Shown here piece after piece: positions 13,145-13,818 of a DNA stretch of 64,000 bases. Location: the NCBI GenBank assembly GCA_964016885.1, contig OZ024741.1, positions 120,342,001-120,406,000 of the forward strand, in the 5' to 3' direction. The translations under genes were made by a program, and so were the position numbers. Numbering within the stretch: the first letter of the stretch is position 1; each line of letters starts with the position of its first letter. Source of the stretch: Eledone cirrhosa (Eukaryota). The notes below the pieces were generated by a model. The model ran no database searches. It was given only the letters and a program-made list of their open reading frames with translations, and was not told where the DNA came from.

Positions 13145-13818
13145 AATGTTGAATCATCGTGGATTGTGTGATGGACATGTAGTCTATAAATTGCGTTTCC
13201 TGGATTGTGTAAGTGGTGGTGTGTGCGAGGACAGTGGAGCTGTTTTGCTTCTCATTTGTAATATTTTTGATATTTTTGATATTTTTGGTGTTTCTCTACA
13301 CACGGGCTTCTATATCGTACAGGTGTGTGTGAAAAATGCTTTAACAATACAGCCCCCATGATGCTATTGATTGCCTGCTTTAACTGCTTGTTTTACATGT
13401 AACAATCTGCCGCACTATAATCTTGTATAAATAGGACACGCGTGCATGCCACGCGTGAGACTGTTACATACACTGGCTACTCTAAACTTTCCTCTTGCTT
13501 TATCTTCATAAACTGCCAATGTTTTATTTTTATTTTTATTTTTATTTTAATTTTAATTTTAATTTTAACTTTAATTTTGTCCTTTAATATGACTGTAATC
13601 TTTGTATGTAAATTGCCATGCTATATTATTATGATGGATGTCAACCCACTGTGGGTCAATATATACATATGTTTCTATATGTCTCTTGTGTTGAAAAGGA
13701 GGTCAAGTATGTAAAAAATCACTAAATAATTGCTCCGAAGAATCCAAACCTCGGTTTGGAGGAAACAATTGTAAGCAAATAAATGATTTAAACTGAACTT
13801 TGATTCATGTAATTTCTA
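13145..13818 (+). mobile_element. PLE 3-prime end/pLTR copy, A-to-G hypermutated in its 5-prime part
   Basis: Homologous to the reverse complement of ~38115-38670. Contains an HHR and ends in (TA)n. Confidence 0.75.
13730..13778 (+). ncRNA. Hammerhead-like motif, U4C core, palindromic stem III
   Basis: ttgct-CCGAAGA-a-tccaaacc tc ggtttgga-g-GAAAC aatt GTA-agcaa. Copies at 38158-38206 (-) and 38807-38855 (+). Confidence 0.7.

Follow-up and report, generated by a model that had tools for sequence, protein, structure and literature searches.

The window, a stretch of 64,000 nucleotides from Eledone cirrhosa (contig OZ024741.1, positions 120,342,001 to 120,406,000), contains a copy of a Penelope-like element (PLE) from a lineage in which two nested sets of sense-strand A-to-G changes have been fixed within one non-coding stretch of 390 bases. 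We consider it likely, with a probability of roughly three in four, that both sets originated from ADAR editing of the RNA of two successive master copies, whose inosines would have been reverse-transcribed as G. Deamination of minus-strand cDNA cannot produce sense-strand A>G changes, which fit inosine in the template RNA.

The copy in question (12928..13822, forward strand) was recognized by homology as a 5'-truncated member of the G4 subfamily, comprising the end of the 3' UTR and the pseudo-LTR; its homology blurs at a junction at 12918-12927. With its G-rich stretch as a genome query, all 40 scored candidates were further matches of 92-98% identity, most of them spanning 12918-13822, and the A-rich stretch retrieved a separate match set of its own. 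An earlier note on this DNA had reported about 20 A>G differences against about one G>A relative to a second copy at 38.5 kb, and pairwise alignment of 13198-13820 with the reverse complement of 38115-38669 bears this out: the 226 aligned bases of 13198-13455 contain 23 A>G, 1 G>A, 1 T>C, 4 C>T and 15 transversions, with 23 of the 73 A's differing (binomial p = 3e-6, 23 vs 1). All four differences quoted there as examples are present in the alignment, the G letters do lie on the strand of the ORF and the ribozyme, and the bias fades toward the hammerhead end, as had been noticed (13541-13820, 4 A>G vs 5 G>A). The proposed interval, 13190..13455, indeed carries the bias, but the alignment starts only at 13198, where the 38.5-kb copy is truncated, and the biased segment is wider, approximately 13090-13476.

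The copy itself, in contrast to the earlier reading, is not hypermutated. Its G letters are the consensus of its subfamily and are common to 73 G-type copies. In the multiple alignment, the 26 G/A differences in 13198-13455 are distributed between two successive steps described below (10 and 11 sites, respectively), a later branch of the G lineage (2), G>A changes on the branch of the 38.5-kb copy (2), and a single near-private site. Compared with the G4 consensus, 18 of 887 bases differ (A>G 3, G>A 4), and the copy is an ordinary G4 member. Similarly, the 38.5-kb copy, previously taken for an unedited control, belongs instead to a sister subfamily, A2, with A at the diagnostic sites and 0.4% divergence from the A consensus. 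It forms the long arm (38115..38669, reverse strand) of a fold-back insertion, the short inverted arm of which (232 bp) occupies 38668..38899 on the forward strand. Short-read contigs of run X1, which may derive from the assembly's own sample, carry the G-type letters in 30 of 30 bins, and thus assembly error is ruled out for these letters; the sole substitution listed is A>G at 13211.

The consensuses of the A-type and G-type copies differ over 13091-13476 by 43 A>G and 2 G>A. A degenerate pattern yielded 340 exact matches in the genome; hand-counting among the matches listed (100 of 340) gave 40 A-type, 11 one-G and 49 G-type sequences. Ten of the 11 one-G matches represent an intermediate subfamily, H, and the remaining one is an A-type copy with extra changes; the edited lineages, H and G together, account for 59 of the 100 matches listed. 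We fetched 80 stretches around pattern matches, aligned 149 copies with an outgroup consensus, retained the 144 spanning the segment, and grouped 141 of them (leaving out L110 and two arms of L064) into 58 A, 10 H and 73 G copies, in a sample where 60 loci had been selected for their similarity to the two copies in the window and both arms of a pair were counted.

The changes in the segment (13090..13476, forward strand) fall on two consecutive stems. Among strictly diagnostic changes in 13085-13480, the stem of H and G (step 1) has 14 A>G vs 2 other, and the stem of G (step 2) has 19 vs 2, with 0-2 A>G on seven other tested branches. The consensus steps demonstrate the same asymmetry, 21 A>G vs 2 G>A from A3 to H and 27 vs 1 from H to G1, whereas the upstream UTR is symmetric at both steps (7 vs 8 and 6 vs 6; Fisher p = 1e-6 and 2e-13, respectively). 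The ORF consensuses of A and G, compared over 2318 bases, are also symmetric (7 A>G, 10 G>A), and so is the 3' end of the element; an ORF consensus of H was unobtainable from its two non-overlapping pieces. Copies form three discrete classes at the step sites, with the fraction of G at step-1/step-2 sites being 0.00/0.00 in the 58 A copies, 0.92/0.02 in the 10 H copies, and 0.95-1.00/0.95-0.99 in the 73 G copies. Since the sites of the two steps are intermixed along the sequence, H is a genuine intermediate, and its origin as an A/G recombinant or crossover mosaic was rejected. The subfamilies are all of similarly young age (median distance to consensus 1.7-3.1%), which argues that the edited and unedited lineages amplified side by side.

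The direction of change was assessed using an outgroup family, O (15 copies, about 70% alike). At the 33 strict sites, O has A at 23 and G at 5; by step, A is found at 9/14 step-1 and 14/19 step-2 sites, and G at 4 and 1, respectively. Of the 59 invariant-A sites, 6 read G in O. Given its level of likeness, and with A present at 11 of the 32 invariant-G sites, family O alone polarizes the changes weakly. Trees rooted on O, whether built with the segment left out or with A and G pooled, place H as the sister of G (bootstrap 93 and 88) with G nested deepest. For step 2 the comparison of subfamilies points firmly to A>G, because the A and H subfamilies both hold A, and for step 1 the same direction rests more on O. 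The earlier expectation that a consensus would show A at these sites is correct for the ancestral state, but the consensus of the copy's own subfamily does carry G. In the upstream UTR, sites with G or C in O and A or T in the A and G types are far more numerous than sites of the opposite kind (48 vs 24 and 39 vs 7), an unpolarized difference that is perhaps a GC shift.

The changed A's show a distinct neighbor context. The 5' neighbors of the 48 changed A's (changed/total) are T 24/92, A 18/76, C 5/54 and G 1/24, so that 42 of 168 A's that follow T or A were changed (A/T vs C/G, p = 0.001). The ADAR-like 5' preference that had been proposed from a single example is supported, and the depletion of upstream G corresponds to the ADAR motif as described in the accessible text of PMC4365171 and PMC5625713. 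The 3' neighbors show no significant preference (G 6/18, p = 0.13). An in-genome reference for this signature is provided by a privately A>G hyper-mutated copy of another PLE family at 40000..42055 on the reverse strand (the 41.5-kb copy), which differs from its family consensus over 1330 bases of 40700-42055 by 167 A>G, against 7 changes of other kinds. Of 20 loci fetched by likeness to it, 5 hold a privately edited copy (this one and L177-L180); three of the five have 121-167 A>G over about 1300 bases. In these five copies, the rates by 5' context are T 0.41, A 0.34, C 0.22 and G 0.12. This profile agrees with the fixed sites (p = 0.73), unlike a flat one (p = 0.036). Both the PLE identity of our element and its distinctness from the 41.5-kb family, as given in the earlier note, are supported, and so is its suggestion that the process is recurrent. 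The 41.5-kb copy resembles the fixed sites in strand and 5' context, but its edits run through the ORF, whereas the fixed edits of H and G are non-coding and were inherited by most of the family. In the 41.5-kb family, two private copies fall to zero A>G in the last 500 bases, and two drop sharply in the last 300-400. Since these copies fade as well, fading toward the ribozyme end is a general trait, and selection is not needed as its only cause.

We assigned the element to the Hydra clade of PLEs by motif and architecture features. Locus L151 contains an 855-residue stop-free frame with YRDD and IIY..YIG, i.e. a single ORF with the RT followed by a C-terminal GIY-YIG nuclease. In this frame, RWR at residue 40 is RWK-like, DKT at 127 replaces DKG, the linker CxCX5C is CNCRSNRTC, the C-terminal CxxC and CxH are CNLC and CQH, CCHH is absent, and one Cys lies within the GIY-YIG core. 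Pseudo-LTRs, tandem and inverted arms and (TA)n targets are all present, and 44 of 79 stretches carry arms on both strands. In the Atlas neighbors, a share of the members is labeled RVT_1 and GIY-YIG; a Pfam scan returned no families for any of four proteins. The parts of PMC8557442 (Craig 2021) that describe this clade list RW(R), DKT, CxCX5C, CxxC with CxH, lack of CCHH, (TA)n, the pseudo-LTR and inverted arms. Assignment to the Neptune clade was rejected, as both the CX2-5CxxC linker and CCHH are missing. The element differs from the members described there, which are generally below 3 kb, in its size (about 4.5 kb with a 1.6-kb 3' UTR) and its ribozyme core, CCGAAGA; the same text does not mention editing.

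In related loci the ORF lies on the element's strand and stops about 750 bases upstream of the start of the 12928..13822 copy. A putative TATA box of the pseudo-LTR promoter, TATAAATA, is located at 13426..13433 on the forward strand, its function being predicted from the letters. This TATA-like core is intact, with altered flanking A's at 13425 and 13440, and is invariant in 100 of 100 copies among the matches listed; family O carries TATAAACA at the corresponding position. In locus L066, a direct pseudo-LTR that begins just upstream of the TATA-like box precedes the ORF, which places the biased segment on the upstream side of the presumed start site. This locus (G000:C1:152446800-152456500) combines two tandem units with an inverted arm and a direct pseudo-LTR of short length, an arrangement that may be that of a master copy. 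A putative minimal type I hammerhead-like motif (TTGCT / CCGAAGA / 7-bp stem II / GAAA C AATT GTA / AGCAA) occupies 13730..13778 on the forward strand. Its core has a mismatch at position 4 relative to the canonical CUGANGA (...GAAA) and is identical in all 10 consensus rows; the predicted fold contains stems I and II (z = -2.5). The architecture agrees with the minimal motif as presented in the available part of PMC4209133. No hammerhead was found among 72 Rfam matches at E<=1, and none reached the hammerhead gathering score. The element is followed by a (TA)n/(GA)n microsatellite (13823..13968); most element ends are followed by TATA, and the ends adjoin (TA)n.

Several other features of the window were observed. 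Region 8022-13822 includes a full-length PLE of another family (reverse strand) with direct repeats 8022-8842 and 12109-12927 (98.7% alike). It meets the G4 copy in a head-to-head join at 12918-12927, and each of the two elements has its 3' end in (TA)n. This join looks like either a two-armed insertion from two different RNAs or an insertion of one element into another. Two intronless ORFs of about 650 residues, 23760-25709 (forward strand) and 30758-32710 (reverse strand), are 72% alike over 900 bases and presumably resemble seven-transmembrane receptors. Near-perfect palindromes of about 110 bases at 42282-42396 and 37670-37782 have weak, sub-threshold matches to microRNA families and are possibly small inverted-repeat elements.

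No stable duplex was found by folding in 13090-13476 (z = -0.48), and pairing is equal between the A's that changed and those that did not (0.45 vs 0.46). A local hairpin was rejected as the ADAR substrate for the majority of sites; just four fall within one, a 12-bp stem at about 13160-13190. The upstream 3' UTR contains a better-looking substrate (L075:4290-4680, z = -2.8), a rod-like hairpin about 350 bases long and possibly an RNA element under constraint, in which fixed A>G changes are not clearly in excess. The 3' 340 bases (13480-13822) are spared, although a fold-back arm should expose the 3' end most. Privately hyper-edited copies of the G/H/A family number 0 of 141, and none were found among the matches listed in two further searches (100 of 291 and 100 of 373), whose power is low for frequencies below a few percent; a forced double-change pattern gave 0 genome matches, as did its control pattern. 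Ordinary copies of this family have no excess of A>G over T>C. The two stems bear 13 and 20 ordinary upstream changes, and therefore span many cycles.

This length of the stems would suit a gradual course, in which ADAR editing left a few fixed sites per retrotransposition cycle along two long stems and the intermediates left few copies. The small nested extra changes in H and in G1/G2, as well as the lack of private bursts in this family, point the same way. Nevertheless, branches of similar length (A2, G3 and G4+G5, whose upstream changes number 11-22) acquired 0-1 A>G within the segment, and the three discrete classes of copies also speak against it; we regard this course as unlikely. A bias toward A>G at reverse transcription that does not involve ADAR, caused by misincorporation or nucleotide-pool imbalance in two founder events, would likewise be strand-specific and episodic, and would need no duplex, in agreement with our failure to find one by folding. 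We hold it to be quite improbable, as the 5' context agrees with both the ADAR motif and the private copies and ordinary copies show no comparable excess.

The opposite polarity, with G ancestral and lost from H and A by G>A hypermutation (a cytidine deaminase acting on cDNA, or CpG decay), could draw on the five strict sites with G in family O and on the two of 26 window-pair sites that are true G>A changes on the A2 branch. The prevalence of A in O and the deep nesting of G in the rooted trees contradict it, in particular its APOBEC-type version with sense G>A editing of cDNA; the 3' neighbor preference on the sense strand expected from a cDNA deaminase is absent, and CpG counts of the A-type and G-type consensuses differ by just 4-5. 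This polarity is already largely refuted, and we assign it a very low probability. A comparably small chance is given to selection or biased conversion that enriched G in a promoter region from ordinary mutations. The segment is non-coding and adjacent to the TATA-like box, and the edited lineages are abundant, but the two stems show no elevation of T>C (0 and 1), which excludes a GC-biased process, and 33 parallel changes of one type with a neighbor preference are not expected from selection alone. Finally, private hyper-editing of the 12928..13822 copy at its insertion, as envisaged in the earlier note, would explain the pairwise excess, and a privately edited copy does occur in the window; still, 25 of the 26 sites are common to, or explained by, the subfamily consensus, and there is scarcely any likelihood left for it.

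The preferred reading, RNA editing of two successive masters, suggests the following sequence of events. A sense RNA would have paired with antisense RNA and, in this state, undergone hyper-editing in part of its 3' UTR. The edited RNA would have been copied into a full-length insertion that became a master, and a descendant would have gone through a second round of editing that covered more of this stretch. ADAR is the probable enzyme, acting on dsRNA formed in trans or derived from fold-back insertions, and each step may correspond to one or a few molecules. The masters could have survived because the ORF, the TATA-like core and the ribozyme were all left unedited, and RNAs edited in the ORF, as in the 41.5-kb copy, would give rise to dead copies. 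With the biased stretch just upstream of the presumed start site, the promoter region inherited by the following generation would consist of the edited letters, akin to retroviral U3. Hyper-editing of the avian retrovirus RAV-1 reportedly concerned a working U3 region. About a third of the A's in the promoter-side pseudo-LTR were rewritten, and the same stretch was hit on two consecutive stems though none of the 141 copies is privately edited, a coincidence hard to obtain by chance. A more speculative extension, which we advance tentatively and consider possible rather than probable, is that ADAR served as an adaptive mutator of the retrotransposon: two hyper-edited RNAs would each have founded a successful autonomous subfamily, with the edits favored through altered promoter strength or lost pairing with antisense or small RNAs of older copies.

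Avian retroviruses with A-to-G hyper-editing, namely RAV-1 (Felder 1994) and avian leukosis virus (Hajjar and Linial 1995), as cited in a passage of PMC8586724, similarly represent ADAR-type A>G clusters that pass via reverse transcription into DNA. Those are exogenous viruses and single events, whereas here two nested events, each then amplified, occurred in a non-viral germline retrotransposon. Strand-biased, consensus-polarized deaminase clusters in genomic retroelement copies have also been described for APOBEC-edited LTR retrotransposons of vertebrate genomes (Knisbacher and Levanon, PMC4866542); the portion of that study available to us gives no signal in 19 invertebrates and concerns G>A on cDNA of individual restricted copies, in contrast to A>G on RNA here. 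Its filter, as outlined in the same portion, requires the unedited letter in the consensus and would presumably miss edits that have become the consensus. ADAR hyper-editing of repeat RNA is very abundant in octopus according to the consulted sections of Porath 2014 (PMC4365171) and Porath 2017 (PMC5625713). The A>G clusters with depleted upstream G reported in these sections are similar to ours, but they are described in RNA only, with long duplexes typical, and here they occur in DNA copies with no duplex found. Our literature search, with subscription papers and supplements outside its scope, found no report of ADAR-type edits fixed in transposon subfamilies, and such fixation is not described in the accessible parts of PMC13034634, PMC2873906 and bioRxiv 10.64898/2026.07.22.740005.

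RNA editing is usually viewed as transient, and a deaminase scar in a retroelement as the sign of a copy that has been killed. In this family, A>G marks are diagnostic letters of subfamilies that form more than half of the copies among the matches listed. If ADAR made these marks, it would supply transposon evolution with heritable jumps that alter many sites at once; ages of subfamilies calculated from sequence distance would be inflated, and screens that compare each copy with its own consensus would overlook the successful cases. The natural versions A, H and G of this element provide a ready series for studies of silencing escape or promoter change.
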